A stretch of 37,226 bases of DNA from a virus (lineage: Duplodnaviria > Heunggongvirae > Uroviricota > Caudoviricetes), in IMG/VR virus record IMGVR_UViG_2529292736_000004; one strand, written 5' to 3'. Positions 14,973 to 37,226 of the stretch are shown here, in pieces (position 1 is the stretch's first letter; the number at the start of each line of letters is the position of its first letter). The notes beneath the pieces are model-generated. The model worked only from the letters and a program-made list of their open reading frames with translations. It searched no databases and was not told the DNA's origin. Both the position numbers and the translations under genes were made by a program.

Positions 14973-15003
14973 TTTTTTTGCAAATCACAAAGTCCATTTA
15001 ATG

Positions 15004-15026
15004 AGCCTCGCGATGCGGGGCTTTTT
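15004..15026 (+). terminator. Intrinsic terminator after the lysis cassette
   Basis: gcctcgc-gat-gcggggc stem (one mismatch) followed by ttttt. Confidence 0.5.
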
Positions 15027-15033
15027 GCAATAA

Positions 15034-15058
15034 ATGCGTACCGCAACGCATGTTTTTT
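15034..15058 (+). terminator. Second intrinsic terminator after the lysis cassette
   Basis: atgcgt-accgca-acgcat hairpin followed by gtttttt. Confidence 0.55.
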
Positions 15059-15173
15059 ACACCGAACCTGCCCCTTTGGAATGGGCCTTTGAGGATACCA
15101 GTTAGTGCTGGCGAGCCTCGGTGGGCTGGTTTCCTGTGCGGCAAAGGTTCATTTCAAAGAGTAGGTACACGCT

Positions 15174-15671: not shown

Positions 15672-15931
15672 GTGATCGTGTTATTGAATGCGCCTCCAGA
15701 GCGGGGCGCGACTTCTCAGAGTTCATGAAAGGCGAGAAGGGCATGATGGAAGCATTGGCCTCGGTGGATGAGTTTGGCGAGCAGCTGCGCCTCAACGGCT
15801 GTGTCAATCATCACTTTGTTAGCTACATGATGCGGAACTCGATCATGCAGGCATTCATAGACATGGCAAAAGCCGAGAGGAAAGAAGAGCGCCGGCGTAA
15901 GCGAGCGGAAGCAAAAGCAAAAGTGAAGTAG
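15668..15931 (+). CDS. Hypothetical protein, 87 aa, lysine/arginine-rich C-terminus
   Basis: ORF translationally coupled to the upstream gene (ATGA overlap). Confidence 0.5.
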   Translation: MSDRVIECASRAGRDFSEFMKGEKGMMEALASVDEFGEQLRLNGCVNHHFVSYMMRNSIMQAFIDMAKAERKEERRRKRAEAKAKVK

Positions 15932-16155
15932 CCATTACAAAGCCCATTTACGGGTGGGCTTGATAATGAAACCGGAATTTATTCTGGGCCACCAGTTAAC
16001 GGCAGTACCACGAAACAACCCAAGCCAGTAAGTGGGGAAATAACACCGGCAGCCACTGAAAGATGAACCTCCTGCCTTATGGCAAAAAAGATTCTTTGTG
16101 GTGGCGGACTGATGGAAAGACATCCTAATTTCAGCCAAACATTGAAGGAGTTGTT

Positions 16156-16227
16156 ATGTCAGCAGAAGGTTTCAATAACCCATCAAAATTCCGGGATGAG
16201 TGGGATAGCAGCGTAAAGAGTAAGTGA
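16156..16227 (+). CDS. Putative 23-aa peptide (MSAEGFNNPSKFRDEWDSSVKSK) with a strong RBS
   Basis: GAAGGAG 7 nt upstream of the ATG; followed by the same hairpin/GATAATG module that follows the 15668..15931 gene. Confidence 0.25.
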   Translation: MSAEGFNNPSKFRDEWDSSVKSK

Positions 16228-16309
16228 TGCCATCACAAAAGCCATTCCCTACAGAGTGGCTTTGATAATGGCTTATACCCTACACGGGATAACTTAACTG
16301 ATATCCCTT

Positions 16310-16474
16310 TTAAAGGATAAAGGTATTCAAGCCTGACACATCATGCGCTGTATCGTCGCCGTATTCCCGTATTAACAGAGACCGTAGCCCGACGGGGAAC
16401 TCCTTCTGCGCGAGTGTGCGGGAATAATCAAAAACGATGCACACCGGGGTTACCGGGTACACATATTTCATCAT
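16310..16474 (-). CDS. Putative small protein, 54 aa (MMKYVYPVTPVCIVFDYSRTLAQKEFPVGLRSLLIREYGDDTAHDVSGLNTFIL)
   Basis: Hand translation; below the track cut-off. Coding status uncertain. Confidence 0.25.
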   Translation of the reverse strand: MMKYVYPVTPVCIVFDYSRTLAQKEFPVGLRSLLIREYGDDTAHDVSGLNTFIL

Positions 16475-16519
16475 GCCAGCGAGTCCGGTTCTGGCACGGA
16501 AGAAACCGGACGTTATGAT

Positions 16520-16930
16520 TTAGTGCGGAAATATTTGTGTAGAGTTCTGAATGTTCTCAGTAAAGAGTAATGAATTATCAAAGGTATAGTAATACCTTTT
16601 GTTTTCGTGGATATTTGTAATCCATCTGAAAACCCCTGCTGTAGCAAGATTTTTCCTGTATTCGTAAAATGATAACTCTCCTGATTTGAATCCTTTTAAG
16701 GTGGCTTCTATAAGGCATTTATTTTTTGAAAATCTTACATTTACAACCTTACCCTGTCCTTTTATTAAAACCGTATTATCGTTTTCAAGAACAAGATGAA
16801 TATTCTCTGTGGCTAAATAGTAAATGTAATGTGAGACATTGTGACGTTTTAGTTCAGAATAAAACCAGTGATAGTTTAAATTATTTCGCACTTTATCGAA
16901 TATTTGTTTAAAAATGGCAACCTGAGCCAT
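16520..16930 (-). CDS. ybcV: YbcV/YdfO-like protein (DUF1398 family), about 136 aa
   Basis: [61 protein letters not shown]... resembles E. coli prophage YdfO/YbcV from memory; low-GC region. Confidence 0.7.
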
Positions 16931-16987
16931 TGTAGTACCTTCCATGTGATATGAGGGGGCGTAGTCTGCACGATTATCTAAATTGCT

Positions 16988-17221
16988 TCAATCTGGTCTA
17001 ACCTGTTTTCTGAGCAATTCAGTAATGTCACTCTTTTCTTTGTTTGCTTCAGGCGAAACTCTTTTTTCTGAGCACAGTCTCCGGCGGCAGGCTTCAATGA
17101 CCCAGGCTGAGAAATTCCCGGACCCTTTTTGAACAAGAGCGATGTTAATTTGTTCAATCATTTGGTTAGGAAAGCGGATGTTGCGGGTTGTTGTTCTGCG
17201 GGTTCTGTTCTTCGTTGACAT
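16988..17221 (-). CDS. ylcI: YlcI/YnfO-like small protein (DUF3950 family), 77 aa
   Basis: MSTKNRTRRTTTRNIRFPNQMIEQINIALVQKGSGNFSAWVIEACRRRL... resembles DLP12 YlcI from memory; sits directly before cos, as ylcI does before nohD. Confidence 0.65.
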   Translation of the reverse strand: MSTKNRTRRTTTRNIRFPNQMIEQINIALVQKGSGNFSAWVIEACRRRLCSEKRVSPEANKEKSDITELLRKQVRPD

Positions 17222-17379
17222 GAGGTTGCCCTGTATTCAGTGTCGCTGATTTGTATTGTCTGAAGTTGTTTTTACGTTAAGTTGATGCAGATCAATTAAT
17301 ACGATACCTGCGTCATAATTGATTATTTGACGTGGTTTGATGGCGTAGATGCACGTTGTGACATGTAGATGATAATTAT

Positions 17380-17600
17380 TATCATTTTGCGGGTCCTTTC
17401 CGGCGATCCGACAGGTTACGGGGCGGCGACCTCGCGGGTTTTCGCTATTTATGAAAATTTTCCGGTTTAAGGCGTTTCCGTTCTTCTTCGTCATAACTTA
17501 ATGTTTTTATTTAAAATACCCTCTGAAAAGAAAGGAAACGACAGGTGCTGAAAGCGAGCTTTTTGGCCTCTGTCGTTTCCTTTCTCTGTTTTTGTCCGTG
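17380..17600 (+). other. cos: Lambda cos site (cosQ-cosN-cosB); 12-nt cohesive end GGGCGGCGACCT at 17421..17432
   Basis: …CGACAGGTTACG|GGGCGGCGACCTCGCGGGTTTTCGCTATTTATGAAAATTTTCCGGTTTAAGGCG… matches the lambda right-end/left-end junction; cosB runs up to the IS66 insertion point at 17608. Confidence 0.9.
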
Positions 17601-17608
17601 GAATGAAC

Positions 17609-17986
17609 GTAAGCGGCTCGCCAGAACCGTATTGATATTTACTGAGAAGTCAGATCAACTTTCCAGGGCAACAGATCGCGTACCCGGTTTGCCGGCCAGT
17701 CCTGGATATGCTCAATAACGTAACGCAGCCATTTTTCTGGCTCTACATTGTTCAGACGGCATGTGCCGATCAGCGAGTACAACACCGCCGCATGTTCGCC
17801 ACCGCTGTCGGAACCCGCGAAGAGCCAGTTTTCCGGCCTACCGCCACTCCCCGTAAGGCGTTCTCTGCGATGTTGTTGTCGATTTCCACCCAGCCATTAC
17901 TGCAGTACACGTTCAGTGCATCCCACTGTTTCAGCAGGTATGCGAACGCTTTTGCCGTATCTGAGTGACGCGACAGTGTTTTCATC
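17609..17986 (-). repeat. Partial (378-bp) copy of the IS66-family element end (terminal repeat plus tnpC 3' end), in tandem with the full copy
   Basis: 17609..17986 aligns with 17987..18364 with about five differences (for example TTTTCC versus TTTTTCC, and two changes within cagtgcatccc versus cagggcctccc); both copies start GTAAGCGGCTCGCC. Confidence 0.85.
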
Positions 17987-18016
17987 GTAAGCGGCTCGCC
18001 AGAACCGTATTGATAT

Positions 18017-19588
18017 TTACTGAGAAGTCAGATCAACTTTCCAGGGCAACAGATCGCGTACCCGGTTTGCCGGCCAGTCCTGGATATGCTCAATAACGTA
18101 ACGCAGCCATTTTTCTGGCTCTACATTGTTCAGACGGCATGTGCCGATCAGCGAGTACAACACCGCCGCATGTTCGCCACCGCTGTCGGAACCCGCGAAG
18201 AGCCAGTTTTTCCGGCCTACGGCCACTCCCCGTAAGGCGTTCTCTGCGATGTTGTTGTCGATTTCCACCCAGCCATTACTGCAGTACACGTTCAGGGCCT
18301 CCCACTGTTTCAGCAGGTATGCGAACGCTTTTGCCGTATCCGAGTGACGCGACAGTGTTTTCATCTGTTCCTGTATCCAGTCATACAGTGACTGCATCAG
18401 TGGAGCCGCTCTGGCTTTTCTTGCTGCCAGACGCTGTTCTGCTGAACATCCCCAGACTTCTGCCTCGATGACATACAGTTCACCGATACGCTGCAGGGCT
18501 TCCGTGGTGATGTCGGTTGGCACTCTTGCATGCACATCGTGGATTTTTCTCCGGGCATGGGCCATACACGCGGCTTCCGTTATTCTGCCGGATTCGTATA
18601 ACGCCCGGTAACCACCGTAAGCATCTGCCTGAAGCACACCGCTGTAACCGGCCAGGTGATTCTGTGGATGGATACCTTTCCGGTCCGGGCTGTACGCGAA
18701 CCAGACCGCCGGGGGCATCTGTGAACCGGCGTTACGGTCATCACGGACATAGACCCACAGCCGGGCAGTTCTTGTTTTACCACTGCCCGGCTCCTGGACC
18801 GGAACGGGGATATCATCCGCATGGACTTTACCGGGCATCAGCACATACTGGCGCAGCACGTCATACAGCGGCTCCAGCAGTTCAGCAACGGCACCGGTCC
18901 AGCGCCCCAGCGTGGCGCGGCTCAGTTCCACGCCCTGACGAAGGTATATTTCTGACTGGCGGTATAACGGCAGATGGTCTGCATACTTCCCGGTGACGAT
19001 ATGAGCCAGAAGCCCCGCTCCGGCATAACTGCGTGCAATGGGTTTTGAAGGTACTGGTGCCTGCACGATATGGTCGCACCGGCAACAGGCCAGTTTCGGA
19101 CGTTGTGTTTCGATAACCTTAAAAGCGCTGCTGATAAGCTCCAGTTGCTCTGACACATCACACCCCAGAGGACTGAGGTCACCACCACAGGCCGGGCAGC
19201 ATTCCTCTTCCGGCCGGATGACCCGGGTTTCACGGGGAAGTGAGGCCGGTAACGGCTTACGGGCTGAAGACTGGCGCAGGGCGGATGGCAGTACCGGGTC
19301 ATATTGCTCACCCAGCGTTTCCGCCATTTCTTCCTGAAGTGCGCTGATTCGCTCCTGGGCTTCCTGTATCTGCCGTTCGGTTTTAGCGCGAAGTTTTTCT
19401 GAGCTTTTACCGAACTGCATACGTTGCAGTTTCGCAACCAGCGCCTTCAGCCGGTTGATTTCGGAAGCATAAGCCGCCACCCGCTGTGAGAGCAGGCGGT
19501 TGTATTCAGCCATCTGGCGTATGGTGTCCTGTTGCGTCTGCAACAGTGCCCGCAGGCGGGCGTTCTCATGAGCAAGTGAGGTGTCCAT
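18017..19588 (-). CDS. tnpC: IS66-family transposase TnpC (orf3), 523 aa
   Basis: N-terminal coiled-coil/leucine-zipper region, CxxC zinc-finger-like motifs (CPACGG...CCRCDH) and a DDE-type catalytic region typical of IS66 transposases. Confidence 0.85.
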
Positions 19589-19607
19589 ATCCTCACTTTA
19601 CAACGGG

Positions 19608-19955
19608 TTATATGCGGATGCCAGCGCGTTCCGTTCGTTTCGGGTGCTTCCAGTTGATACCTTCAAGAAGCATAGATAACTGAGCCGGAGTAAGGTGCAC
19701 CTTGCCGTCACGGGTAACCGGCCAGACGAAGCGGCCCCGCTCCAGGCGTTTGGTGAAGAGGCACAGTCCGTCACTGTCAGCCCACAACACTTTTATCTGG
19801 TCACCCCGGCGTCCGCGGAAGATGAACAGATGCCCGGAGAACGGGTCATCCTTCAGGACGTTCTGAACTTTTGATGCCAGGCCGTTAAAACCATTTCGCA
19901 TGTCGGTGATACCGGCAACCAGCCAGATACGCGAACCGGCAGGGAGAGATATCAT
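19608..19955 (-). CDS. tnpB: IS66-family TnpB (orf2), 115 aa
   Basis: MISLPAGSRIWLVAGITDMRNGFNGLASKVQNVLKDDPFSGHLFIFRGRRGDQIKVLWADSDGLCLFTKRLERGRFVWP: canonical IS66 Orf2. Confidence 0.85.
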   Translation of the reverse strand: MISLPAGSRIWLVAGITDMRNGFNGLASKVQNVLKDDPFSGHLFIFRGRRGDQIKVLWADSDGLCLFTKRLERGRFVWPVTRDGKVHLTPAQLSMLLEGINWKHPKRTERAGIRI

Positions 19956-20605
19956 TAGTGGCTGCTCCCTTTCATTTCGCGGATAAGTGTCTGTAATAAC
20001 GCCGGTGTCAGTTCACCTTTCAGCCTGAGAGTTCCGGCCGGCAGAACCAGCTCACAGCACAGACTGTCGGGCGGTGTATTTATCTGTTCAGGTATCTGCA
20101 CTGGTGCCGGGATTTTATTATCCGGCTCCGGAGTTAACGTCACGGGAAGTAGCGATGTTTCATGTTCGCCGGTCGGCTGCAGGCCGCCGTTACGCCAGAG
20201 ATGCCGCCAGTTAAAGAGCAGGTTATCGTTGATTCCGTTCTCACGAGCTATTTGTGCGACACAGGCACCGGGTAAAAGAGTTTGCTGAACAAGCCTCCAT
20301 TTAAACTCCGGTGAAAATCGGTTCCGGCGGATTTTCTCTGTTTTCACAGGCTGAGTCACTGTCGGGGCTGAAGGGTATCGCCCCGGGAACAGAGCCCGGG
20401 CCAGTTGCACGCAGGAATATTCTCCGGAAAGAGGCCAGTCAGTGAATACCTGGTGAAATCGCCTCACCAGAGAAAAAATGGCGGTTTTGCTGATACCGGT
20501 CTGCGCAGAAATGCGCGGGTACGACAGTGACTCGTCAAATCTCAGTTGTAGCACACGCAGGATCAATTCCGGATTGTCTGCCAGTACCGCTTTTCGTGCA
20601 TTCAT
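19955..20605 (-). CDS. tnpA: IS66-family TnpA (orf1), 216 aa with an N-terminal HTH extension
   Basis: Contains ...RRNRFSPEFKWRLVQQTLLPGACVAQIARENGINDNLLFNWR..., typical of IS66 orfA. Confidence 0.75.
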   Translation of the reverse strand: MNARKAVLADNPELILRVLQLRFDESLSYPRISAQTGISKTAIFSLVRRFHQVFTDWPLSGEYSCVQLARALFPGRYPSAPTVTQPVKTEKIRRNRFSPEFKWRLVQQTLLPGACVAQIARENGINDNLLFNWRHLWRNGGLQPTGEHETSLLPVTLTPEPDNKIPAPVQIPEQINTPPDSLCCELVLPAGTLRLKGELTPALLQTLIREMKGSSH

Positions 20606-20699
20606 CTTAAATGTCCCTTTACTGCGAAAATGGACATTAGTATCGGAAACAGGAAAGGGAGGCGAAAGACGGTTTAAATGAGACGGTTACGAATGAACA

Positions 20700-21219
20700 A
20701 TGGAAGTCAACAAAAAGCAGCTGGCTGACATTTTCGGTGCGAGTATCCGTACCATTCAGAACTGGCAGGAACAGGGAATGCCCGTTCTGCGAGGCGGTGG
20801 CAAGGGTAATGAGGTGCTTTATGACTCTGCCGCCGTCATAAAATGGTATGCCGAAAGGGATGCTGAAATTGAGAACGAAAAGCTGCGCCGGGAAGTTGAA
20901 GAACTGCGGCAGGCCAGCGAGACAGATCTCCAGCCAGGGACTATTGAGTACGAACGCCATCGACTTACGCGTGCGCAGGCCGACGCACAGGAGCTGAAAA
21001 ATGCCAGAGACTCCGCTGAAGTGGTGGAAACCGCATTCTGTACTTTCGTGCTGTCGCGGATCGCAGGTGAAATTGCCAGTATTCTCGACGGGATCCCCCT
21101 GTCGGTGCAGCGGCGTTTTCCGGAACTGGAAAACCGACATGTTGATTTCCTGAAACGGGATATCATCAAAGCCATGAACAAAGCAGCCGCGCTGGATGAA
21201 CTGATACCGGGGTTGCTGA

Positions 21220-21245
<26 letters not shown>
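20700..21245 (+). CDS. Nu1: Terminase small subunit Nu1, 181 aa
   Basis: MEVNKKQLADIFGASIRTIQNWQEQGMPVLRGGGKGNEVLYDSAAVIKWYAERDAEIENEKLRREVEELRQA... matches lambda Nu1. Confidence 0.95.
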
Positions 21246-24926
<3,681 letters not shown>

Positions 24927-24946
<20 letters not shown>

Positions 24947-26246
24947 TCTCCCGCATATTGCCAGTATGGCCTTTAATGATCCGCTGATGCTTGAACCCGC
25001 CTATGCGCGGGTTTTCTTTTGTGCGCTTGCAGGCCAGCTTGGGATCAGCCGCCTGACGGATGCGGTGTCCGGCGACAGCCTGACTGCCCAGGAGGCACTC
25101 GCGACGCTGGCGTTATCCGGTGATGATGACGGACCACGACAGGCCCGCAGTTATCAGGTCATGAACGGCATCGCCGTGCTGCCGGTGTCCGGCACGCTGG
25201 TCAGCCGGACGCGGGCGCTGCAGCCGTACTCGGGGATGACCGGTTACAACGGCATTATCGCCCGTCTGCAACAGGCTGCCAGCGATCCGATGGTGGACGG
25301 CATTCTGCTCGATATGGACACGCCCGGCGGGATGGTGGCGGGGGCATTTGACTGCGCTGACATCATCGCCCGTGTGCGTGACATAAAACCGGTATGGGCG
25401 CTTGCCAACGACATGAACTGCAGTGCAGGTCAGTTGCTTGCCAGTGCCGCCTCCCGGCGTCTGGTCACGCAGACCGCCCGGACAGGCTCCATCGGCGTCA
25501 TGATGGCTCACAGTAATTACGGTGCTGCGCTGGAGAAACAGGGTGTGGAAATCACGCTGATTTACAGCGGCAGCCATAAGGTGGATGGCAACCCCTACAG
25601 CCATCTTCCGGATGACGTCCGGGAGACACTGCAGTCCCGGATGGACGCAACCCGCCAGATGTTTGCGCAGAAGGTGTCGGCATATACCGGCCTGTCCGTG
25701 CAGGCTGTGCTGGATACCGAGGCTGCAGTGTACAGCGGTCAGGAGGCCATTGATGCCGGACTGGCTGATGAACTTGTTAACAGCACCGATGCGATCACCG
25801 TCATGCGTGATGCACTGGATGCACGTAAATCCCGTCTCTCAGGAGGGCGAATGACCAAAGAGACTCAATCAACAACTGTTTCAGCCACTGCTTCGCAGGC
25901 TGACGTTACTGACGTGGTGCCAGCGACGGAGGGCGAAAACGCCAGCGCGGCGCAGCCGGACGTGAACGCGCAGATCACCGCAGCGGTTGCGGCAGAAAAC
26001 AGCCGCATTATGGGGATCCTCAACTGTGAGGAGGCTCACGGACGCGAAGAACAGGCACGCGTGCTGGCAGAAACCCCCGGTATGACCGTGAAAACGGCCC
26101 GCCGCATTCTGGCCGCAGCACCACAGAGTGCACAGGCGCGCAGTGACACTGCGCTGGATCGTCTGATGCAGGGGGCACCGGCACCGCTGGCTGCAGGTAA
26201 CCCGGCATCTGATGCCGTTAACGATTTGCTGAACACACCAGTGTAA
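24927..26246 (+). CDS. C: Capsid maturation protease / minor capsid protein C, 439 aa (GTG start)
   Basis: VTAELRNLPHIASMAFNDPLMLEPAYARVFF... matches lambda gpC; GTG at 24927 behind GAGGAGG; ClpP/S49-like protease fold. Confidence 0.9.
25641..26246 (+). CDS. Nu3: Scaffolding protein Nu3 (in-frame C-terminal portion of C), 201 aa
   Basis: Internal in-frame ATG at 25641 (MDATRQMFAQKVSAYTGLSVQ...), arrangement as in lambda C/Nu3. Confidence 0.8.
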   Translation: MDATRQMFAQKVSAYTGLSVQAVLDTEAAVYSGQEAIDAGLADELVNSTDAITVMRDALDARKSRLSGGRMTKETQSTTVSATASQADVTDVVPATEGENASAAQPDVNAQITAAVAAENSRIMGILNCEEAHGREEQARVLAETPGMTVKTARRILAAAPQSAQARSDTALDRLMQGAPAPLAAGNPASDAVNDLLNTPV

Positions 26247-26255
26247 GGGATGTTT

Positions 26256-26588
26256 ATGACGAGCAAAGAAACCTTTACCCATTACCAGCCGCAGGGCAAC
26301 AGTGACCCGGCTCATACCGCAACCGCGCCCGGCGGATTGAGTGCGAAAGCGCCTGCAATGACCCCGCTGATGCTGGACACCTCCAGCCGTAAGCTGGTTG
26401 CGTGGGATGGCACCACCGACGGTGCTGCCGTTGGCATTCTTGCGGTTGCTGCTGACCAGACCAGCACCACGCTGACATTCTACAAGTCCGGCACGTTCCG
26501 TTATGAGGATGTGCTCTGGCCGGAGGCTGCCAGCGACGAGACGAAAAAACGGACCGCGTTTGCCGGAACGGCAATCAGCATCGTTTAA
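26256..26588 (+). CDS. D: Head decoration protein D, 110 aa
   Basis: [52 protein letters not shown]... matches lambda gpD. Confidence 0.95.
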
Positions 26589-26643
26589 CTTTACCCTTCA
26601 TCACTAAAGGCCGCCTGTGCGGCTTTTTTTACGGGATTTTTTT

Positions 26644-27669
26644 ATGTCGATGTACACAACCGCCCAGCTGCTGGCGGCAAATGAGCAGAAATTTAAGTTT
26701 GATCCGCTGTTTCTGCGTCTCTTTTTCCGTGAGAGCTATCCCTTCACCACGGAGAAAGTCTATCTCTCACAAATTCCGGGACTGGTAAACATGGCGCTGT
26801 ACGTTTCGCCGATTGTTTCCGGTGAGGTTATCCGTTCCCGTGGCGGCTCCACCTCTGAATTTACGCCGGGATATGTCAAGCCGAAGCATGAAGTGAATCC
26901 GCAGATGACCCTGCGTCGCCTGCCGGATGAAGATCCGCAGAATCTGGCGGACCCGGCTTACCGCCGCCGTCGCATCATCATGCAGAACATGCGTGACGAA
27001 GAGCTGGCCATTGCTCAGGTCGAAGAGATGCAGGCAGTTTCTGCCGTGCTCAAGGGCAAATACACCATGACCGGTGAAGCCTTCGATCCGGTTGAGGTGG
27101 ATATGGGCCGCAGTGCGGCGAACAACATCACGCAGTCCGGCGGCACGGAGTGGAGCAAGCGTGACAAGTCCACGTATGACCCGACCGACGATATCGAAGC
27201 CTACGCGCTGAACGCCAGCGGCGTGGTGAATATCATCGTGTTTGACCCGAAAGGCTGGGCGCTGTTCCGTTCCTTCAAAGCCGTCAGGGAGAAGCTGGAT
27301 ACCCGTCGCGGCTCTCATTCCGAACTGGAGACAGCGGTAAAAGACCTGGGCAAAGCGGTGTCTTATAAGGGAATGTATGGCGATGTGGCCATCGTCGTGT
27401 ATTCCGGACAGTACGTGGAAAACGGCGTCAAAAAGAACTTCCTGCCGGACAACACGATGGTGCTGGGTAACACTCATGCACGCGGTCTGCGCACCTATGG
27501 CTGTATTCAGGATGCAGATGCATTGAGTGAGGGTATTAATGCGTCTCCCCGTTATCCGAAAAACTGGAAGACATCCGGCGATCCGGCGCGAGAGTTCACC
27601 ATGATTCAGTCAGCACCGCTGATGCTGCTGGCTGATCCTGATGAGTTCGTGTCCGTTCAACTGGCGTAA
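26644..27669 (+). CDS. E: Major capsid protein E, 341 aa
   Basis: MSMYTTAQLLAANEQKFKFDPLFLRLFFRESYPFTTEKVYLSQIPGLVNMALYVSPIVSGEVIRSRGGSTSEF... matches lambda gpE. Confidence 0.95.
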   Translation: MSMYTTAQLLAANEQKFKFDPLFLRLFFRESYPFTTEKVYLSQIPGLVNMALYVSPIVSGEVIRSRGGSTSEFTPGYVKPKHEVNPQMTLRRLPDEDPQNLADPAYRRRRIIMQNMRDEELAIAQVEEMQAVSAVLKGKYTMTGEAFDPVEVDMGRSAANNITQSGGTEWSKRDKSTYDPTDDIEAYALNASGVVNIIVFDPKGWALFRSFKAVREKLDTRRGSHSELETAVKDLGKAVSYKGMYGDVAIVVYSGQYVENGVKKNFLPDNTMVLGNTHARGLRTYGCIQDADALSEGINASPRYPKNWKTSGDPAREFTMIQSAPLMLLADPDEFVSVQLA

Positions 27670-27710
27670 TCATGGCCCTTCGGGGCCATTTTCTCTCTGT
27701 GGAGGAGTCC

Positions 27711-28106
27711 ATGACGAAAGATGAACTGATTGCCCGTCTCCGTTCGCTGGGTGAGCAACTGAACCGTGATGTCAGCCTGACGGGGACGAAAGAAGAACTG
27801 GCGCTCCGTGTGGCAGAGCTGGAAGAGGAGCTTGATGACACGGATGACGCAGCCGGTCAGGACACGTCTGTCAGCCCGGAAAATGTGCTGACCGTGCATG
27901 AAAATGAGGTGGTATCAGCGCAGCCGGATACCGTGACTGATACGGCTGAACTGGTCACGGTCGTGGCACTGGTGACGCTGCATACTGATGCACTTCACGC
28001 CACGCGGGATGAACCTGTGGCATTTGTGCTGCCGGGAACGGCGTTTCGTGTCTCTGCCGGTATGGCAGCCGAAATGACAGAGCGCGGCCTGGCCAGAATG
28101 CAATAA
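27711..28106 (+). CDS. FI: DNA-packaging protein FI, 132 aa
   Basis: MTKDELIARLRSLGEQLNRDVSLTGTKEELALRVAELEEELDDTDD... matches lambda gpFI; ATG at 27711 behind GGAGGAG. Confidence 0.9.
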   Translation: MTKDELIARLRSLGEQLNRDVSLTGTKEELALRVAELEEELDDTDDAAGQDTSVSPENVLTVHENEVVSAQPDTVTDTAELVTVVALVTLHTDALHATRDEPVAFVLPGTAFRVSAGMAAEMTERGLARMQ

Positions 28107-28117
28107 CGGGAGGCGCT

Positions 28118-28471
28118 GTGGCTGATTTCGATAACCTGTTCGATGCTGCCATTGCCTGCGCCGATGAAACGATACGCGGGTACATGGGAACGTCAGCCAC
28201 CATGACATCCGGTGAGCAGTCCGGTGCTGTGATACGTGGTGTTTTTGATGACCCTGAAAATATCAGCTATGCCGGACAGGGCGTGCGCGTTGAAGGCTCC
28301 AGCCCGTCCCTGTTTGTCCGGACTGATGATGTGCGGCAGCTGCGGCGCGGCGACACGCTGACCATCGGTGAGGAAAACTTCTGGATAGACCGGATTTCGC
28401 CGGATGATGGCGGAAGCTGTCATCTCTGGCTTGGGCGGGGCGTACCGCCTGCCGTTAACCGTCGCCGCTGA
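28118..28471 (+). CDS. FII: Head-tail joining protein FII, 117 aa
   Basis: MADFDNLFDAAIACADETIRGYMGTSATMTSGEQSGAVIRGVFDDPENISYAGQGVRVEG... matches lambda gpFII. Confidence 0.95.
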   Translation: MADFDNLFDAAIACADETIRGYMGTSATMTSGEQSGAVIRGVFDDPENISYAGQGVRVEGSSPSLFVRTDDVRQLRRGDTLTIGEENFWIDRISPDDGGSCHLWLGRGVPPAVNRRR

Positions 28472-28482
28472 AAGGGGGATGT

Positions 28483-29061
28483 ATGGCCATAAAAGGTCTT
28501 GAGCAGGCCGTTGAAAACCTCAGCCGTATCAGCAAAACGGCGGTGCCCGGTGCCGCCGCAATGGCCATTAACCGCGTTGCTTCATCCGCGATATCGCAGT
28601 CGGTGTCACAGGTTGCCCGTGAGACAAAGGTACGCCGGAAACTGGTAAAGGAAAGGGCCAGGCTGAAAAGGGCCACGGTCAAAAATCCGCAGGCCAGAAT
28701 CAAGGTTAACCGGGGGGATTTGCCCGTAATCAAGCTGGGTAATGCGCGGGTTGTCCTTTCGCGCCGCAGGCGTCGTAAAAAGGGGCAGCGTTCATCCCTG
28801 AAAGGTGGCGGCAGCGTGCTTGTGGTGGGTAACCGTCGTATTCCCGGCGCGTTTATTCAGCAACTGAAAAATGGCCGGTGGCATGTCATGCAGCGTGTGG
28901 CCGGGAAAAACCGTTACCCCATTGATGTGGTGAAAATCCCGATGGCGGTGCCGCTGACCACGGCGTTTAAACAAAATATTGAGCGGATACGGCGTGAACG
29001 TCTTCCGAAAGAGCTGGGCTATGCGCTGCAGCATCAACTGAGGATGGTAATAAAGCGATGA
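28483..29061 (+). CDS. Z: Minor tail protein Z, 192 aa
   Basis: MAIKGLEQAVENLSRISKTAVPGAAAMAINRVASSAISQSVSQVARETKVRRKLVKERARLKRATVKNPQ... matches lambda gpZ. Confidence 0.95.
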   Translation: MAIKGLEQAVENLSRISKTAVPGAAAMAINRVASSAISQSVSQVARETKVRRKLVKERARLKRATVKNPQARIKVNRGDLPVIKLGNARVVLSRRRRRKKGQRSSLKGGGSVLVVGNRRIPGAFIQQLKNGRWHVMQRVAGKNRYPIDVVKIPMAVPLTTAFKQNIERIRRERLPKELGYALQHQLRMVIKR

Positions 29062-29453
29062 AACATACTGAATTCCGTGCAGCCGTACTGGATGCACTGG
29101 AGAAGCATGACACCGGGGCGACGTTTTTTGATGGTCGCCCCGCTGTTTTTGATGAGGCGGATTTTCCGGCAGTTGCCGTTTATCTCACCGGCGCTGAATA
29201 CACGGGCGAAGAGCTGGACAGCGATACCTGGCAGGCGGAGCTGCATATCGAAGTTTTCCTGCCTGCTCAGGTGCCGGATTCAGAGCTGGATGCGTGGATG
29301 GAGTCCCGGATTTATCCGGTGATGAGCGATATCCCGGCACTGTCAGATTTGATCACCAGTATGGTGGCCAGCGGCTATGACTACCGGCGCGACGATGATG
29401 CGGGCCTGTGGAGTTCAGCCGATCTGACTTATGTCATTACCTATGAAATGTGA
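29058..29453 (+). CDS. U: Tail terminator protein U, 131 aa
   Basis: [69 protein letters not shown]... matches lambda gpU. Confidence 0.95.
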
Positions 29454-29460
29454 GGACGCT

Positions 29461-30201
29461 ATGCCTGTACCAAATCCTACAATGCCGGTGAAAGGTGCCG
29501 GGACCACCCTGTGGGTTTATAAGGGGAGCGGTGACCCTTATGCGAATCCGCTTTCAGACGTTGACTGGTCGCGTCTGGCAAAAGTTAAAGACCTGACGCC
29601 CGGCGAACTGACCGCTGAGTCCTATGACGACAGCTATCTCGATGATGAAGATGCAGACTGGACTGCGACCGGGCAGGGGCAGAAATCTGCCGGAGATACC
29701 AGCTTCACGCTGGCGTGGATGCCCGGAGAGCAGGGGCAGCAGGCGCTGCTGGCGTGGTTTAATGAAGGCGATACCCGTGCCTATAAAATCCGCTTCCCGA
29801 ACGGCACGGTCGATGTGTTCCGTGGCTGGGTCAGCAGTATCGGTAAGGCGGTGACGGCGAAGGAAGTGATCACCCGCACGGTGAAAGTCACCAATGTGGG
29901 ACGTCCGTCGATGGCAGAAGATCGCAGCATGGTAACAGCGGCAACCGGCATGACCGTGACGCCTGCCAGCACCTCGGTGGTGAAAGGGCAGAGCACCACG
30001 CTGACCGTGGCCTTCCAGCCGGAGGGCGTAACCGACAAGAGCTTTCGTGCGGTGTCTGCGGATAAAACAAAAGCCACCGTGTCGGTCAGTGGTATGACCA
30101 TCACCGTGAACGGCGTTGCTGCAGGCAAGGTCAACATTCCGGTTGTATCCGGTAATGGTGAGTTTGCTGCGGTTGCAGAAATTACCGTCACCGCCAGTTA
30201 A
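29461..30201 (+). CDS. V: Major tail tube protein V, 246 aa
   Basis: [67 protein letters not shown]... matches lambda gpV, including the C-terminal Ig-like domain. Confidence 0.95.
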
Positions 30202-30216
30202 TCCGGAGAGTCAGCG

Positions 30217-30639
30217 ATGTTCCTGAAAACCGAATCATTTGAACATAACGGTGTGACCGTCACGCTTTCTGAACTGTCAGCCCTGCAGCGCATTGAGCAT
30301 CTCGCCCTGATGAAACGGCAGGCAGAACAGGCGGAGTCAGACAGCAACCGGAAGTTTACTGTGGAAGACGCCATCAGAACCGGCGCGTTTCTGGTGGCGA
30401 TGTCCCTGTGGCATAACCATCCGCAGAAGACGCAGATGCCGTCCATGAATGAAGCCGTTAAACAGATTGAGCAGGAAGTGCTTACCACCTGGCCCACGGA
30501 GGCAATTTCTCATGCTGAAAACGTGGTGTACCGGCTGTCTGGTATGTATGAGTTTGTGGTGAATAATGCCCCTGAACAGACAGAGGACGCCGGGCCCGCA
30601 GAGCCTGTTTCTGCGGGAAAGTGTTCGACGGTGAGCTGA
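30217..30639 (+). CDS. G: Tail assembly chaperone G, 140 aa
   Basis: MFLKTESFEHNGVTVTLSELSALQRIEHLALMKRQAEQAESDSNRKFTVEDAIRTGAFLVAMSLWHNHP... matches lambda gpG. Confidence 0.95.
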   Translation: MFLKTESFEHNGVTVTLSELSALQRIEHLALMKRQAEQAESDSNRKFTVEDAIRTGAFLVAMSLWHNHPQKTQMPSMNEAVKQIEQEVLTTWPTEAISHAENVVYRLSGMYEFVVNNAPEQTEDAGPAEPVSAGKCSTVS

Positions 30640-31055
30640 GTTTTGCCCTGAAACTGGCGCGTGAGATGGGGCGACCCGACTGGCGTGCCATGCTTGCCGG
30701 GATGTCATCCACGGAGTATGCCGACTGGCACCGCTTTTACAGTACCCATTATTTTCATGATGTTCTGCTGGATATGCACTTTTCCGGGCTGACGTACACC
30801 GTGCTCAGCCTGTTTTTCAGCGATCCGGATATGCATCCGCTGGATTTCAGTCTGCTGAACCGGCGCGAGGCTGACGAAGAGCCTGAAGATGATGTGCTGA
30901 TGCAGAAAGCGGCAGGGCTTGCCGGAGGTGTCCGCTTTGGCCCGGACGGGAATGAAGTTATCCCCGCTTCCCCGGATGTGGCGGACATGACGGAGGATGA
31001 CGTAATGCTGATGACAGTATCAGAAGGGATCGCAGGAGGAGTCCGGTATGGCTGA
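30217..31055 (+). CDS. T: Tail assembly chaperone G-T fusion made by -1 programmed ribosomal frameshift at GGGAAAG (30615..30621)
   Basis: Slippery heptamer G GGA AAG near the end of G; the -1 frame continues open to 31055 (…FDGELSFALKLAREMGRPDWRAMLAGMSSTEYADWHRFY…), matching lambda gpT. Confidence 0.85.
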
Positions 31056-33609
31056 ACCGGTAGGCGATCTGGTCGTTGATTTGAGTCTGGATGCGGCCAG
31101 ATTTGACGAGCAGATGGCCAGAGTCAGGCGTCATTTTTCCGGTACGGAAAGTGATGCGAAAAAAACAGCGGCAGTCGTTGAACAGTCGCTGAGCCGACAG
31201 GCGCTGGCTGCACAGAAAGCGGGGATTTCCGTCGGGCAGTATAAAGCCGCCATGCGTATGCTGCCTGCACAGTTCACCGACGTGGCCACGCAGCTTGCAG
31301 GCGGGCAAAGTCCGTGGCTGATCCTGCTGCAACAGGGGGGGCAGGTGAAGGACTCCTTCGGCGGGATGATCCCCATGTTCAGGGGGCTTGCCGGTGCGAT
31401 CACCCTGCCGATGGTGGGGGCCACCTCGCTGGCGGTGGCGACCGGTGCGCTGGCGTATGCCTGGTATCAGGGCAACTCAACCCTGTCCGATTTCAACAAA
31501 ACGCTGGTCCTTTCCGGCAATCAGGCGGGACTGACGGCAGATCGTATGCTGGTCCTGTCCAGAGCCGGGCAGGCGGCAGGGCTGACGTTTAACCAGACCA
31601 GCGAGTCACTCAGCGCACTGGTTAAGGCGGGGGTAAGCGGTGAGGCTCAGATTGCGTCCATCAGCCAGAGTGTGGCGCGTTTCTCCTCTGCATCCGGCGT
31701 GGAGGTGGACAAGGTCGCTGAAGCCTTCGGGAAGCTGACCACAGACCCGACGTCGGGGCTGACGGCGATGGCACGCCAGTTCCATAACGTGACGGCGGAG
31801 CAGATTGCGTATGTTGCTCAGTTGCAGCGTTCCGGCGATGAAGCCGGGGCATTGCAGGCGGCGAACGAGGCCGCAACGAAAGGGTTTGATGACCAGACCC
31901 GCCGCCTGAAAGAGAACATGGGCACGCTGGAGACCTGGGCAGACAGGACAGCACGGGCATTCAAATCCATGTGGGATGCGGTGCTGGATATTGGTCGTCC
32001 TGATACCGCGCAGGAGATGCTGATTAAGGCAGAGGCTGCGTTTAAGAAAGCAGACGACATCTGGAATCTGCGCAAGGATGATTATTTTGTTAACGATGAA
32101 GCGCGGGCGCGTTACTGGGATGATCGTGAAAAGGCCCGTCTTGCGCTTGAAGCCGCCCGAAAGAAGGCTGAGCAGCAGACTCAACAGGACAAAAATGCGC
32201 AGCAGCAGAGCGATACCGAAGCGTCACGGCTGAAATATACCGAAGAGGCGCAGAAGGCTTACGAACGGCTGCAGACGCCGCTGGAGAAATATACCGCCCG
32301 TCAGGAAGAACTGAACAAGGCACTGAAAGACGGGAAAATCCTGCAGGCGGATTACAACACGCTGATGGCGGCGGCGAAAAAGGATTATGAAGCGACGCTG
32401 AAAAAGCCGAAACAGTCCGGCGTGAAGGTGTCTGCGGGCGATCGTCAGGAAGACAGTGCTCATGCTGCCCTGCTGACGCTTCAGGCAGAACTCCGGACGC
32501 TGGAGAAGCATGCCGGAGCAAATGAGAAAATCAGCCAGCAGCGCCGGGATTTGTGGAAGGCGGAGAGTCAGTTCGCGGTACTGGAGGAGGCGGCGCAACG
32601 TCGCCAGCTGTCTGCACAGGAGAAATCCCTGCTGGCGCATAAAGATGAGACGCTGGAGTACAAACGCCAGCTGGCTGCACTTGGCGACAAGGTTACGTAT
32701 CAGGAGCGCCTGAACGCGCTGGCGCAGCAGGCGGATAAATTCGCACAGCAGCAACGGGCAAAACGGGCCGCCATTGATGCAAAAAACCGGGGGCTGACTG
32801 ACCGGCAGGCAGCGCGGGAAGCCACGGAACAGCGCCTGAAGGAACAGTATGGCGATAATCCTCTGGCGCTGAATAACGTCATGTCAGAGCAGAAAAAGAC
32901 CTGGGCGGCTGAAGACCAGCTTTGCGGGAGCTGGATGGCAGGCCTGAAGTCCGGCTGGAGTGAGTGGGAAGAGAGCGCCACGGACAGTATGTCGCAGGTA
33001 AAAAGTGCAGCCACGCAGACCTTTGATGGTATTGCACAGAATATGGCGGCGATGCTGACCGGCAGTGAGCAGAACTGGCGCAGCTTCACCCGTTCCGTGC
33101 TGTCCATGATGACAGAAATTCTGCTTAAGCAGGCAATGGTGGGGATTGTCGGGAGTATCGGCAGCGCCATTGGCGGGGCTGTTGGTGGCGGCGCATCCGC
33201 GTCAGGCGGTACAGCCATTCAGGCCGCTGCGGCGAAATTCCATTTTGCAACCGGAGGATTTACGGGAACCGGCGGCAAATATGAGCCAGCGGGGATTGTT
33301 CACCGTGGTGAATTTGTCTTCACGAAGGAGGCAACCAGCCGGATTGGCGTAGGAAATCTTTACCGGCTGATGCGCGGCTATGCCACCGGCGGTTATGTCG
33401 GTACACCGGGCAGCATGGCGGACAGCCGGTCGCAGGCGTCCGGGACGTTTGAGCAGAATAACCATGTGGTGATTAACAACGACGGCACGAACGGTCAGAT
33501 AGGGCCACAGGCACTGAAGGCGGTTTATGACGTAGCCCGTAAGGCGGCAATGGATGTTGTGACCGGGCAGATGCGCGATGGTGGTCTGTTCTCCGGAGGT
33601 GGACGATGA
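31048..33609 (+). CDS. H: Tail tape-measure protein H, 853 aa
   Basis: Matches lambda gpH (MAEPVGDLVVDLSLDAARFDEQMARVRRHFSGTESDAKKTAAVVEQSLSRQALAAQKAGISVGQYKAAMRM...). Confidence 0.95.
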   Translation: MAEPVGDLVVDLSLDAARFDEQMARVRRHFSGTESDAKKTAAVVEQSLSRQALAAQKAGISVGQYKAAMRMLPAQFTDVATQLAGGQSPWLILLQQGGQVKDSFGGMIPMFRGLAGAITLPMVGATSLAVATGALAYAWYQGNSTLSDFNKTLVLSGNQAGLTADRMLVLSRAGQAAGLTFNQTSESLSALVKAGVSGEAQIASISQSVARFSSASGVEVDKVAEAFGKLTTDPTSGLTAMARQFHNVTAEQIAYVAQLQRSGDEAGALQAANEAATKGFDDQTRRLKENMGTLETWADRTARAFKSMWDAVLDIGRPDTAQEMLIKAEAAFKKADDIWNLRKDDYFVNDEARARYWDDREKARLALEAARKKAEQQTQQDKNAQQQSDTEASRLKYTEEAQKAYERLQTPLEKYTARQEELNKALKDGKILQADYNTLMAAAKKDYEATLKKPKQSGVKVSAGDRQEDSAHAALLTLQAELRTLEKHAGANEKISQQRRDLWKAESQFAVLEEAAQRRQLSAQEKSLLAHKDETLEYKRQLAALGDKVTYQERLNALAQQADKFAQQQRAKRAAIDAKNRGLTDRQAAREATEQRLKEQYGDNPLALNNVMSEQKKTWAAEDQLCGSWMAGLKSGWSEWEESATDSMSQVKSAATQTFDGIAQNMAAMLTGSEQNWRSFTRSVLSMMTEILLKQAMVGIVGSIGSAIGGAVGGGASASGGTAIQAAAAKFHFATGGFTGTGGKYEPAGIVHRGEFVFTKEATSRIGVGNLYRLMRGYATGGYVGTPGSMADSRSQASGTFEQNNHVVINNDGTNGQIGPQALKAVYDVARKAAMDVVTGQMRDGGLFSGGGR

Positions 33610-33935
33610 AAACCTTCCGCTGGAAAGTGAAACCCGGTATGGATGTGGCTTCGGCCCCTTCTGTAAGAAAGGTGCGCTTTGGTGATGGCTATTCCCAGCG
33701 AGCGCCTGCCGGGCTGAATGCCAACCTGAAAACGTACAGCGTGACGCTTTCTGTTCCCCGTTGGGAGGCCACGGTACTGGAGTCGTTTCTGGAAGAGCAC
33801 GGGGGCTGGAAGGCCTTTCTGTGGACGCCGCCTTATGAGTGGCGGCAGATAAAGGTGACCTGCGCAAAATGGTCGTCGCGGGTCAGTATGCTGCGTGTTG
33901 AGTTCAGCGCAGAGTTTGAACAGGTGGTGAACTGA
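33606..33935 (+). CDS. M: Tail tip assembly protein M, 109 aa
   Basis: MKTFRWKVKPGMDVASAPSVRKVRFGDGYSQRAPAGLNANLKTYSVTLSVPRWEATVLESFLEEHGGWKAF... matches lambda gpM. Confidence 0.95.
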   Translation: MKTFRWKVKPGMDVASAPSVRKVRFGDGYSQRAPAGLNANLKTYSVTLSVPRWEATVLESFLEEHGGWKAFLWTPPYEWRQIKVTCAKWSSRVSMLRVEFSAEFEQVVN

Positions 33936-34632
33936 TGCAGGATATCCGGCAGGAAACACTGAATGAATGCACCCGTGCGGAGCAGTCGGCCAGCGTGGTG
34001 CTCTGGGAAATCGACCTGACAGAGGTCGGTGGAGAACGTTATTTTTCTGTAATGAGCAGAACGAAAAAGGTGAGCCGGTCACCTGGCAGGGGCGACAGTA
34101 TCAGCCGTATCCCATTCAGGGGAGCGGTTTTGAACTGAATGGCAAAGGCACCAGTACGCGCCCCACGCTGACGGTTTCTAACCTGTACGGTATGGTCACC
34201 GGGATGGCGGCAGATATGCAGAGTCTGGTCGGCGGAACGGTGGTCCGGCGTAAGGTTTACGCCCGTTTTCTGGATGCGGTGAACTTCGTCAACGGAAACA
34301 GTTACGCCGATCCGGAGCAGGAGGTGATCAGCCGCTGGCGCATTGAGCAGTGCAGCGAACTGAGCGCGGTGAGTGCCTCCTTTGTACTGTCCACGCCGAC
34401 GGAAACGGATGGCGCTGTTTTTCCGGGACGTATCATGCTGGCCAACACCTGCACCTGGACCTATCGCGGTGATGAGTGCGGTTATCACGGTCCGGCTGTC
34501 GCGGATGAATATGACCAGCCAACGTCCGATATCACGAAGGATAAATGCAGCAAATGCCTGAGCGGTTGTAAGTTCCGCAATAACGTCGGCAACTTTGGCG
34601 GCTTCCTTTCCATTAACAAACTTTCGCAGTAA
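33935..34632 (+). pseudogene. L: Tail tip protein L, reading frame broken by a 1-nt deletion in a T-run (about 34042..34047)
   Basis: N-terminal 37 aa (MQDIRQETLNECTRAEQSASVVLWEIDLTEVGGERYF) are in one frame (track ORF 33935..34138); the rest (FFCNEQNEKGEPVTWQGRQYQPYPIQ...INKLSQ) is in the next frame (33967..34632). Both match lambda gpL. Confidence 0.8.
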
Positions 34633-34781
34633 ATCCCATGACACAGACAGAATCAGCGATTCTGGCGCACGCCCGGCGATGTGCGCCAGCGGAGTCGTGC
34701 GGCTTCGTGGTAAGCACGCCGGAGGGGGAAAGATATTTCCCCTGCGTGAATATCTCCGGTGAGCCGGAGGCGTATTTCCGT

Positions 34782-35381
34782 ATGTCGCCGGAAGACTGGC
34801 TGCAGGCAGAAATGCAGGGTGAGATTGTGGCGCTGGTCCACAGCCACCCCGGTGGTCTGCCCTGGCTGAGTGAGGCCGACCGGCGGCTGCAGGTGCAGAG
34901 TGATTTGCCGTGGTGGCTGGTCTGCCGGGGGACGATTCATAAGTTCCGCTGTGTGCCGCATCTCACCGGGCGGCGCTTTGAGCACGGTGTGACGGACTGT
35001 TACACACTGTTCCGGGATGCTTATCATCTGGCGGGGATTGAGATGCCGGACTTTCATCGTGAGGATGACTGGTGGCGTAACGGCCAGAATCTCTATCTGG
35101 ATAATCTGGAGGCGACGGGGCTGTATCAGGTGCCGTTGTCAGCGGCACAGCCGGGCGATGTGCTGCTGTGCTGTTTTGGTTCATCGGTGCCGAATCACGC
35201 CGCAATTTACTGCGGCGACGGCGAGCTGCTGCACCATATTCCTGAACAACTGAGCAAACGAGAGAGGTACACCGACAAATGGCAGCGACGCACACACTCC
35301 CTCTGGCGTCACCGGGCATGGCGCGCATCTGCCTTTACGGGGATTTACAACGATTTGGTCGCCGCATCGACCTTCGTGTGA
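34782..35381 (+). CDS. K: Tail tip assembly protein K (JAB/MPN plus NlpC/P60-like), 199 aa; the ORF is open in frame upstream to 34638
   Basis: MSPEDWLQAEMQGEIVALVHSHPGGLPWLSEADRR... (JAMM-type HxH...S..D motif) matches lambda gpK; ATG at 34782 behind GGAGG. Confidence 0.85.
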   Translation: MSPEDWLQAEMQGEIVALVHSHPGGLPWLSEADRRLQVQSDLPWWLVCRGTIHKFRCVPHLTGRRFEHGVTDCYTLFRDAYHLAGIEMPDFHREDDWWRNGQNLYLDNLEATGLYQVPLSAAQPGDVLLCCFGSSVPNHAAIYCGDGELLHHIPEQLSKRERYTDKWQRRTHSLWRHRAWRASAFTGIYNDLVAASTFV

Positions 35382-35950
35382 AAACGGGGGCTGAAGCTAT
35401 TCGGGCGCTGGCCACACAGCTCCCGGCGTTTCGTCAGAAACTGAGCGACGGCTGGTATCAGGTACGGATTGCCGGGCAGGATGTCAGCACGTCCGGATTA
35501 ACGGCGCAGTTATATGAGACTCTGCCTGATGGCGCTGTGATTCATATTGTTCCCAGAGTCGCCGGGGCCAAGTCAGGTGGCGTATTCCAGATTGTCCTGG
35601 GGGCTGCCGCCATTGCCGGATCATTCTTTACCGCCGGGGCCACCCTTGCAGCATGGGGGGCAGCCATTGGGGCCGGTGGTATGACCGGCATCCTGTTTTC
35701 TCTCGGTGCCAGTATGGTGCTCGGTGGTGTGGCGCAGATGCTGGCACCGAAAGCCAGAACTCCCCGTACACAGACAACGGATAACGGCAAACAGAACACG
35801 TATTTCTCCTCACTGGATAACATGGTTGCCCAGGGCAATGTTCTGCCGGTTCTGTACGGTGAAATGCGCGTGGGGTCGCGGGTGGTCTCTCAGGAGATCA
35901 GCACGGCAGACGAAGGGGATGGTGGTCAGGTTGTGGTGATTGGTCGCTGA
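35279..35950 (+). CDS. I: Tail tip assembly protein I, 223 aa
   Basis: MAATHTLPLASPGMARICLYGDLQRFGRRIDLRVKTGAEAIRALATQLPAFRQKLSDGWYQVRIAGQD... matches lambda gpI; the start overlaps K. Confidence 0.95.
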   Translation: MAATHTLPLASPGMARICLYGDLQRFGRRIDLRVKTGAEAIRALATQLPAFRQKLSDGWYQVRIAGQDVSTSGLTAQLYETLPDGAVIHIVPRVAGAKSGGVFQIVLGAAAIAGSFFTAGATLAAWGAAIGAGGMTGILFSLGASMVLGGVAQMLAPKARTPRTQTTDNGKQNTYFSSLDNMVAQGNVLPVLYGEMRVGSRVVSQEISTADEGDGGQVVVIGR

Positions 35951-36019
35951 TGAAAAACGTTTATGTGAAACCGCCTCCGGGCGGTTTTGTCGTTTATGGA
36001 GCGTGAGGAATGGGTAAAG

Positions 36020-37226
36020 GCAGCAGTAAGGGGCATACTCCGCGCGAAGCGAAGGACAACCTGAAGTCCACGCAGTTGCTGAGTGTGATCGATGCCATCA
36101 GCGAAGGGCCGGTTGAAGGTCCGGTGGATGGATTAAAAAGCGTGCTGCTGAACAGTACGCCAGTGCTGGACAGTGAGGGGAATACCAATATCTCCGGCGT
36201 CACGGTGGTGTTCCGGGCCGGTGAGCAGGAGCAGACACCGCCGGAGGGATTTGAATCCTCCGGCTCCGAGACGGTGCTGGGTACGGAAGTGAAATACGAC
36301 ACGCCGATCACCCGGACCATCACGTCGGCAAACATTGACCGACTGCGTTTTACCTTCGGCGTGCAGGCACTGGTGGAAACCACCTCAAAGGGGGACAGGA
36401 ATCCGTCGGAAGTCCGCCTGCTGGTTCAGATCCAGCGTAATGGTGGCTGGGTGACGGAAAAAGACATCACCATTAAGGGCAAAACCACCTCGCAGTATCT
36501 GGCCTCGGTGGTGGTGGATAACCTGCCGCCGCGCCCGTTTAATATCCGGATGCGCAGAATGACGCCGGACAGCACCACAGACCAGCTGCAGAACAAAACG
36601 CTCTGGTCGTCATACACCGAAATCATCGATGTGAAACAGTGCTACCCGAACACGGCACTGGTCGGCGTGCAGGTGGATTCGGAGCAGTTCGGCAGCCAGC
36701 AGGTGAGCCGTAATTATCATCTGCGCGGGCGCATTCTGCAGGTGCCGTCGAACTATAACCCGCAGACGCGGCAATACAGCGGTATCTGGGACGGAACGTT
36801 TAAACCGGCATACAGCAACAACATGGCCTGGTGTCTGTGGGATATGCTGACCCATCCGCGCTACGGCATGGGGAAACGTCTTGGTGCGGCGGATGTGGAC
36901 AAATGGGCGCTGTATGTCATCGGCCAGTACTGCGACCAGTCAGTGCCGGACGGCTTTGGCGGCACGGAGCCGCGCATCACCTGTAATGCGTACCTGACCA
37001 CACAGCGCAAGGCGTGGGATGTGCTCAGTGATTTCTGCTCGGCGATGCGCTGTATGCCGGTATGGAACGGGCAGACGCTGACGTTCGTGCAGGACCGACC
37101 ATCAGATAAGGTGTGGACCTATAACCGCAGTAATGTGGTGATGCCGGATGATGGCGCGCCGTTCCGCTACAGCTTCAGCGCCCTGAAGGACCGCCATAAT
37201 GCCGTTGAGGTGAACTGGATTGACCC
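36020..37226 (+). CDS. J: Central tail fibre / host-specificity protein J, N-terminal ~402 aa (partial; runs off the window end)
   Basis: Hand translation from the ATG at 36020: MGKGSSKGHTPREAKDNLKSTQLLSVIDAISEGPVEGPVDGLKSVLLNSTPVLD... matches lambda gpJ; not in the ORF track because no stop is reached. Confidence 0.9.

Follow-up and report, generated by a model that had tools for sequence, protein, structure and literature searches.

A one-base contraction of a T-run splits tail-tip gene L in a draft contig of a lambdoid prophage from Escherichia coli DEC13E

Gene L and its neighbourhood in the deposited contig

The stretch of DNA analysed here, referred to below as the window (37,226 nucleotides), is a complete draft WGS contig, AIHJ01000015.1 (GCA_000250395.2), of E. 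coli DEC13E, a strain of the DEC collection for which the accession-to-strain series of genomes has been confirmed (PMC5592225). It carries a lambdoid prophage in prophage order, and its part from 20691 to 37226 is 98.2% identical to positions 182-16721 of lambda. The gene order H (tape measure)-M-L-K-I-J, as found for the lambda gpL family, is kept in the window. Gene L, which encodes the tail-tip hub protein gpL and is broken here, was delimited by lambda alignment, PF05100 and PDB matches to 33935-34632 on the plus strand, and the interval named in the original prediction coincides exactly with its start and stop codons. Directly upstream lies the intact gene M (109 aa, 33606-33935, plus strand), whose stop overlaps the start of L, and directly downstream the likewise intact gene K (247 aa, 34638-35381, plus strand).

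Inside L, a run of five T's at 34042-34046 on the plus strand can be read directly within tatttttctg (34040-34049; TATTTTTCTG), whereas lambda and all good-quality relatives have six T's at this run. As deposited, the gene measures 698 nt instead of the expected 699, and its frame is broken past codon 37. From the ATG at 33935, frame 1 extends over 67 codons (33935-34138, plus strand, with the stop at 34136-34138), of which codons 1-37 (MQDIRQ...GGERYF) equal residues 1-37 of lambda gpL, the remaining 30 giving out-of-frame residues. In the -1 frame, an open stretch begins at 33967 and runs to the stop at 34630-34632; from 34042 onwards it reads FFCNEQNEKG...INKLSQ, i.e. residues 37-232 of gpL. 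This downstream ORF of 221 aa (33967-34632, plus strand) is annotated as EHX77413.1, 'phage minor tail protein L', and the exact product is recorded in a single contig, AIHJ01000015.1. EHX77413.1 starts at an out-of-frame ATG, and its first 25 residues (33967-34041, MHPCGAVGQRGALGNRPDRGRWRTL) do not belong to gpL.

A base-by-base alignment with lambda (NC_001416) reveals the missing T (lambda position 13536) as the sole indel inside L, in addition to four substitutions. Adding one T yields a protein of 232 aa with 230 of 232 residues identical to lambda gpL; of the two differences, E93A is common to the sister strains and S185H belongs to a common alternative L allele. The original prediction, according to which L is split by the loss of one base in a T-run into two intact lambda-like pieces lying out of frame, and is restored by an extra T, is therefore borne out in each of these respects. 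The repaired gpL matches the family PF05100 (Phage_tail_L) with 336.3 bits over residues 29-230, and the deposited 221-aa ORF does so with 327.7 bits (cut-off 25 in both cases), while the 67-aa upstream ORF has no Pfam match. The repaired protein also matches the full-length 'Tail tip protein L' chains of five lambda tail structures (PDB 8iyk, 8iyl, 8k35, 8xcg and 9e7m).

Lambda L mutants form no functional tails. If the deletion were real, translation would stop after 37 native and 30 foreign residues, so that neither functional gpL nor a tail-tip initiator would be made and tailless particles would result. The structural role of the protein is known: gpL is the trimeric hub protein of the lambda tail tip, present in three copies per tail, with a hub HDI domain formed by residues 1-166 and a C-terminal domain that binds a [4Fe-4S] cluster via Cys173, Cys182, Cys205 and Cys212 (PMC10721106). 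All four cysteines are retained in the downstream frame, according to the alignment with lambda gpL. No uninterrupted ORF of about 232 codons that would give the HDI domain is present as deposited, the available ORFs being those of 67 and 221 aa; since this domain spans residues 1-166, an allele cut short at residue 37 would be null. In its deposited form, L is a pseudogene of the PF05100 family and not a functional member. The lesion is a discrete fact of the record, for which chance is not an issue; the question is whether the deposited base call is correct.

One way in which the five-T gene could nevertheless be functional is recoding: full-length gpL with the wild-type ...YFFCNE... would be restored if tRNA-Phe slipped by -1 on U UUU U, or if transcriptional slippage took place. 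A P-site shift from UUU (34043-34045) to UUU (34042-34044) would indeed give the wild-type protein, which is needed at just three copies per tail, and an SD-like GGUGGAG lies 7 nt upstream; however, the zero frame (CGU UAU UUU UCU) contains no X XXY YYZ heptamer and offers only a U UUU tetramer. The 80 nt downstream have a minimum free energy of -22.8 kcal/mol (z = -0.90) and 35 of 200 shuffled sequences fold as well, there is no Rfam match at the site, and the two-frame arrangement is seen in no good-quality relative, all of which have six T's and one ORF. Transcriptional slippage, moreover, usually needs runs far longer than five residues. Programmed or tolerated recoding, lacking heptamer, downstream structure, Rfam match and conservation, was thus rejected, and we consider it extremely improbable.

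Beyond L, the tail module is intact as far as the contig reaches, as had been anticipated: one full-length ORF or match covers each of Z, U, V, G, T, H, M, K and I, and the frame of J stays open as far as the contig goes. In the late genes, 16.5 kb of lambda-like sequence, no indel other than the missing T breaks a frame; the remaining coding indels in this region come in threes (in FI and H), and an intergenic TTT at about 35960 is also present in intact relatives. The M-L-K block differs from lambda NC_001416 by 13 substitutions and two single-base length differences, the second of which is a G at 34772 of the window that is absent from the lambda reference at about 14266/14267. Because of this G, K comprises 247 aa in the window as against 199 aa in the lambda record. 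The 247-aa ORF is also found in most relatives, and the G missing from K in the reference is presumably an error of that record, corresponding to a long-known correction to J02459. Both K and a 258-aa early protein of the window are very widespread.

Gene O and the insertion elements of the same prophage

The L lesion is not the only one-base contraction of a homopolymer in the window. Intact O genes encode 299 aa; relative to these, replication gene O of the window (6034-6932) falls into ORFs of 176 and 162 aa owing to a change from A6 to A5 at 6487-6491. An exact copy of the truncated 176-aa product is encoded by DEC13C, by JXMX01000002.1 (an unrelated contig of 1.37 Mb) and by two Logan assemblies, so that the O lesion is carried by five contigs from independent projects. 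This recurrence in independent assemblies indicates that the O frameshift is real and inherited, and that homopolymer frameshifts do occur in this prophage lineage, which on the evidence of its O gene is predicted to be replication-defective. The view that four private homopolymer frameshifts in this contig prove bad sequencing chemistry was withdrawn, as the truncated O product is shared by independent assemblies, and because the O lesion proved real our confidence in an artefact in L fell from rather high to somewhat better than even.

Further anomalies are associated with insertion sequences. The contig starts (1-524) with the end of an IS21 element, comprising the 3' part of istB. This istB is broken by a run of five A's at 96-100, where the DEC13C copy and 128 of 128 finished records have four, and a private SNP occurs at 118. 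An IS66-family (ISCro1-like) element occupies 17609-20690, directly upstream of the ATG of Nu1 (20700), with tnpA, tnpB and tnpC on the minus strand, GTAAGCG termini and an 8-bp target duplication (GAATGAAC) at 17601-17608 and 20691-20698; cosN and cosB are intact upstream of it (window position 17421 corresponds to lambda position 1). The insertion at Nu1 is absent from DEC13C and DEC13D. That it might be an old shared insertion was considered and discarded, given that ISCro1 resides in gene C in O26:H11 11368 and that the sister strains have no insertion at Nu1. A tandem duplication affects the initial ~378 bp of the IS66 end (17609-17986 and 17987-18365), and the extra copy has a T4 run as against T5 in its twin and in the finished ISCro1 copy of O26:H11 11368, along with four substitutions, three of which agree with the O26 copy. 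In our own reading, this duplicate, which is about as long as a read and lies at the edge of a repeat, resembles an overlap of contigs that was left unmerged, or else reads derived from another IS copy. The anomalies in istB and IS66 could, on the other hand, be genuine differences between IS copies.

A third element, of the IS3 family, is located in DEC13E at 12428-13736 (ORFs 12469-13359 and 13356-13682, minus strand), between a porin gene and the holin gene S. DEC13D has a copy of the same IS3-family element inside its lysozyme gene, a gene that in DEC13C is hit by an IS21. Three sister strains thus display three different IS hits in or beside the lysis cassette. The porin gene itself (OmpC/OmpD/NmpC-like, Porin_1; 360 aa, 10836-11918, minus strand) is flanked by Q and the lysis genes; it is typical lambdoid cargo that relatives possess as well.

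These findings bear on the consequence that had been drawn for the phage, i.e. virions with defective tails. Because the prophage already has a real frameshift in gene O and an IS66-family element before Nu1, this consequence is largely moot.

The T-run in relatives and the origin of the missing base

The 853-aa H protein of the window is identical in 20 contigs and its portal protein in 24. In all 12 other contigs retrieved by exact H or exact portal, six T's are found wherever the site is covered, and L has 232 aa wherever the whole gene is present. These 12 contigs include DEC13C (AIHH), DEC13D (AIHI), UDCW, UDBY, ABKBPM, DAIHSM and the Logan assemblies ERR1204102, ERR7734099 and SRR23010334, so that NCTC-type assemblies and three Logan assemblies are represented in the six-T set; in all, six T's were read at ten loci besides those of the two sister strains. 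Among the examined contigs with identical H, no independent assembly of the lineage has the five-T lesion, and the missing T is private to the DEC13E assembly. The repaired L allele of the window is absent from about 15 billion proteins, and neither the five-T products nor the repaired allele occur in any Logan sample. Logan appears to contain runs of the DEC project, since the contig of SRR096911 breaks at the private IS sites of DEC13C.

Outside L and the end of the contig, the sister strains are extremely similar. The window and DEC13C match at 100% identity in two segments, 525-12427 and 13737-17608. For DEC13D, 14,256 nt of late genes can be compared, and apart from the missing T only SNPs at 34473, 34486 and 34487 set it apart from the window, all of these changes falling in L; these three SNPs form a small patch (34473-34487, plus strand; T at 34473 and CA at 34486-34487, the latter giving S185H), which besides the missing T constitutes the only difference from DEC13D in about 20 kb. 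Altogether, no point differences between DEC13E and its sisters are found in about 30 kb besides the L cluster and the L-J end. This similarity can be read in two ways. On the one hand, an assembly of DEC13E that is perfect in unique sequence over about 30 kb implies a low general error rate, which favours a real deletion. On the other hand, almost no point differences from the sisters leave little time for a real mutation at one particular run.

A real loss would be a very recent slippage event in a T6 run, private to DEC13E, in a prophage under relaxed selection. A run of six T's is a classic slippage substrate, the same prophage has inherited a frameshift in an A-run of gene O, and inactivating IS events accumulate strain by strain (IS66 and IS3 in DEC13E, the lysozyme hits in its sisters). 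The sequence comparisons nonetheless make us regard such a mutation as possible but rather unlikely: apart from the scarcity of point differences, independent assemblies of the lineage lack the deletion, and a second draft genome of the same project shows the same call. This genome, DEC10F (AIGU01000052.1), has five T's at the run in a different L allele, and its identical 67-aa product is annotated as hypothetical protein ECDEC10F_3522; in finished records, the 101-nt context of the DEC10F allele has six T's in 392 of 392 cases. With at most one in about 8,000 finished-genome copies showing the five-T form, a coincidence of two real deletions in DEC13E and DEC10F would be unlikely.

The quality of the other records with five T's is informative as well. 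Complete E. coli genomes (5,426, with 7,973 L copies) contain the exact five-T 70-mer of the window once, namely in NZ_CP011416.1 (E. coli CFSAN029787), in a different prophage at record positions 1-21218. Six consecutive genes of that prophage (portal, G, tape measure, M, L and K) are flagged 'frameshifted', which suggests uncorrected long-read indel errors in this 'complete' chromosome. The cluster of the 67-aa product contains 15 sequences that share the same frame change on different allele backgrounds. The carriers inspected comprise Logan contigs in which V, H and J are each fragmented, single-contig genomes with fragmented U, H, K, I and J and many homopolymer indels, a metagenome contig with additional T-run indels in T and I, and one clean contig with a k-mer coverage of 0.76. 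In IMG/VR the five-T form occurs in 4 contigs and the six-T form in at least 120, and 2 of these 4 have a second frameshift, in I or K. The T-run of L is hence a recurrent miscall site, whatever else it may be. Given that at least 15 distinct backgrounds among the L alleles show the five-T form, one might also imagine the T6 run of codons 36-38 as a recurrent, possibly reversible slippage hot spot that switches off tail-tip assembly in resident lambdoid prophages, and that may act as a contingency-type switch or as a preferred first step of domestication; we deem such a role very improbable.

The contig end to which L belongs shows signs of a mixed origin. The three-SNP patch is located about 430 bp from the missing T, and at its SNPs it agrees with an alternative L allele (GAT..TAT CAC) that is common and, in many other prophages, has six T's. 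At 34410 and 34521 the alleles of this type depart from the window, which restricts the patch to at most about 110 bp, and the known patch-bearing alleles differ from the window at 34125-34410. In the comparison with DEC13C from M to the contig end, all twelve differences fall within the final 3.2 kb: besides the missing T at 34042 they are at 34473, 34486, 34487, 35398, 35800 and 36518-36758. A further SNP, at 28535, is a deviation of DEC13C alone, as the window and DEC13D agree there. The private SNPs relative to DEC13C cluster in I and J (35398-36758); the J differences at 36518-36758 entail D170G, C211G and N250S, and most of them are states of other natural J alleles. The contig terminates inside J (37226), and the median number of L copies per E. 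coli genome is two. The L-J pattern fits a real exchange between co-resident prophages or a mixing of reads in the assembly, and the SNPs in I and J together with the end inside J point to a mosaic or collapsed-repeat contig end.

From these observations it could be supposed that the five T's are real and were acquired from a second, paralogous lambdoid prophage copy in DEC13E, via gene conversion or a chimeric join, the last ~3.2 kb being of other origin. The confinement of the differences from DEC13C to this end, the natural SNP states, the termination in J and the median of two L copies would all be consistent with such an origin. Yet no second L copy of DEC13E was retrieved, the repaired allele is absent from the protein collection, and the differences of the patch alleles at 34125-34410 mean that one tract would need an unobserved donor. 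A single gene-conversion tract that brought the missing T along with the SNP patch was rejected, as no donor allele fits, and an origin from a second prophage copy appears improbable overall.

The original prediction had left open whether the lesion is real or an artefact, which was a fair judgement at that stage; the evidence gathered since leans to a miscall in the draft assembly of DEC13E, a reading that we favour with slightly more than even confidence and for which we infer a technical cause. The T would then be absent from the record and present in the bacterial DNA, owing either to a homopolymer-length miscall or to a consensus error from mixed reads of paralogous lambdoid prophages, and the true gene would have six T's and encode a normal 232-aa gpL, the trimeric tail-tip hub. 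We lean to a miscall because the site is a homopolymer run and the prophage region around it is multi-copy and shows signs of mixed paralogues, because private homopolymer anomalies occur in the repeat sequence of the contig (A5 in istB, T4 in the IS66 end), because DEC10F from the same project shows the same private five-T call on another allele, and because most other carriers of five T's are error-laden or very low-coverage assemblies.

Significance and likeness to known systems

Either outcome is ordinary and not novel, being a routine homopolymer error or another lesion in an already defective prophage. The biological weight of the L lesion is consequently small: if real, it is one more lesion in a prophage already unable to replicate normally, whereas an artefact would leave the tail module intact. 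Its main relevance is for curation. The N-terminus of EHX77413.1 is false, the T-run is miscalled in several public assemblies, so that L 'pseudogenes' at this site need read support before being counted as decay, and truncated 'hypothetical proteins' of 65-78 aa in the databases stem from this single site in L.

Compared with gene L of lambda, the gene of the window occupies the same place in H-M-L-K-I-J and differs by four substitutions and one gap in 699 nt; it is without one T of the T6 run at codons 36-38 and without the 232-codon ORF. The programmed -1 frameshift of lambda G/GT takes place in the same tail operon, and there, too, the downstream frame is the -1 frame. The lambda G/GT site is a conserved slippery heptamer in all relatives, whereas the site in L has neither heptamer nor stimulator nor a conserved shifted form. 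The closest parallel within the prophage itself is the lesion of gene O, as both are one-base contractions of a six-base homopolymer that split an essential phage gene; the O lesion, however, is carried by five contigs of independent projects, while that of L is reproduced in none of the lineage. Finally, the same T6-to-T5 homopolymer call in L, private to one assembly, is encountered in CFSAN029787 (NZ_CP011416.1) and in the single-contig assemblies GCA_045585815.1 and GCA_045585215.1. In these three records many further genes are split by the side of L, whereas in the window L is the sole broken late gene and the other anomalies are in IS-derived sequence.
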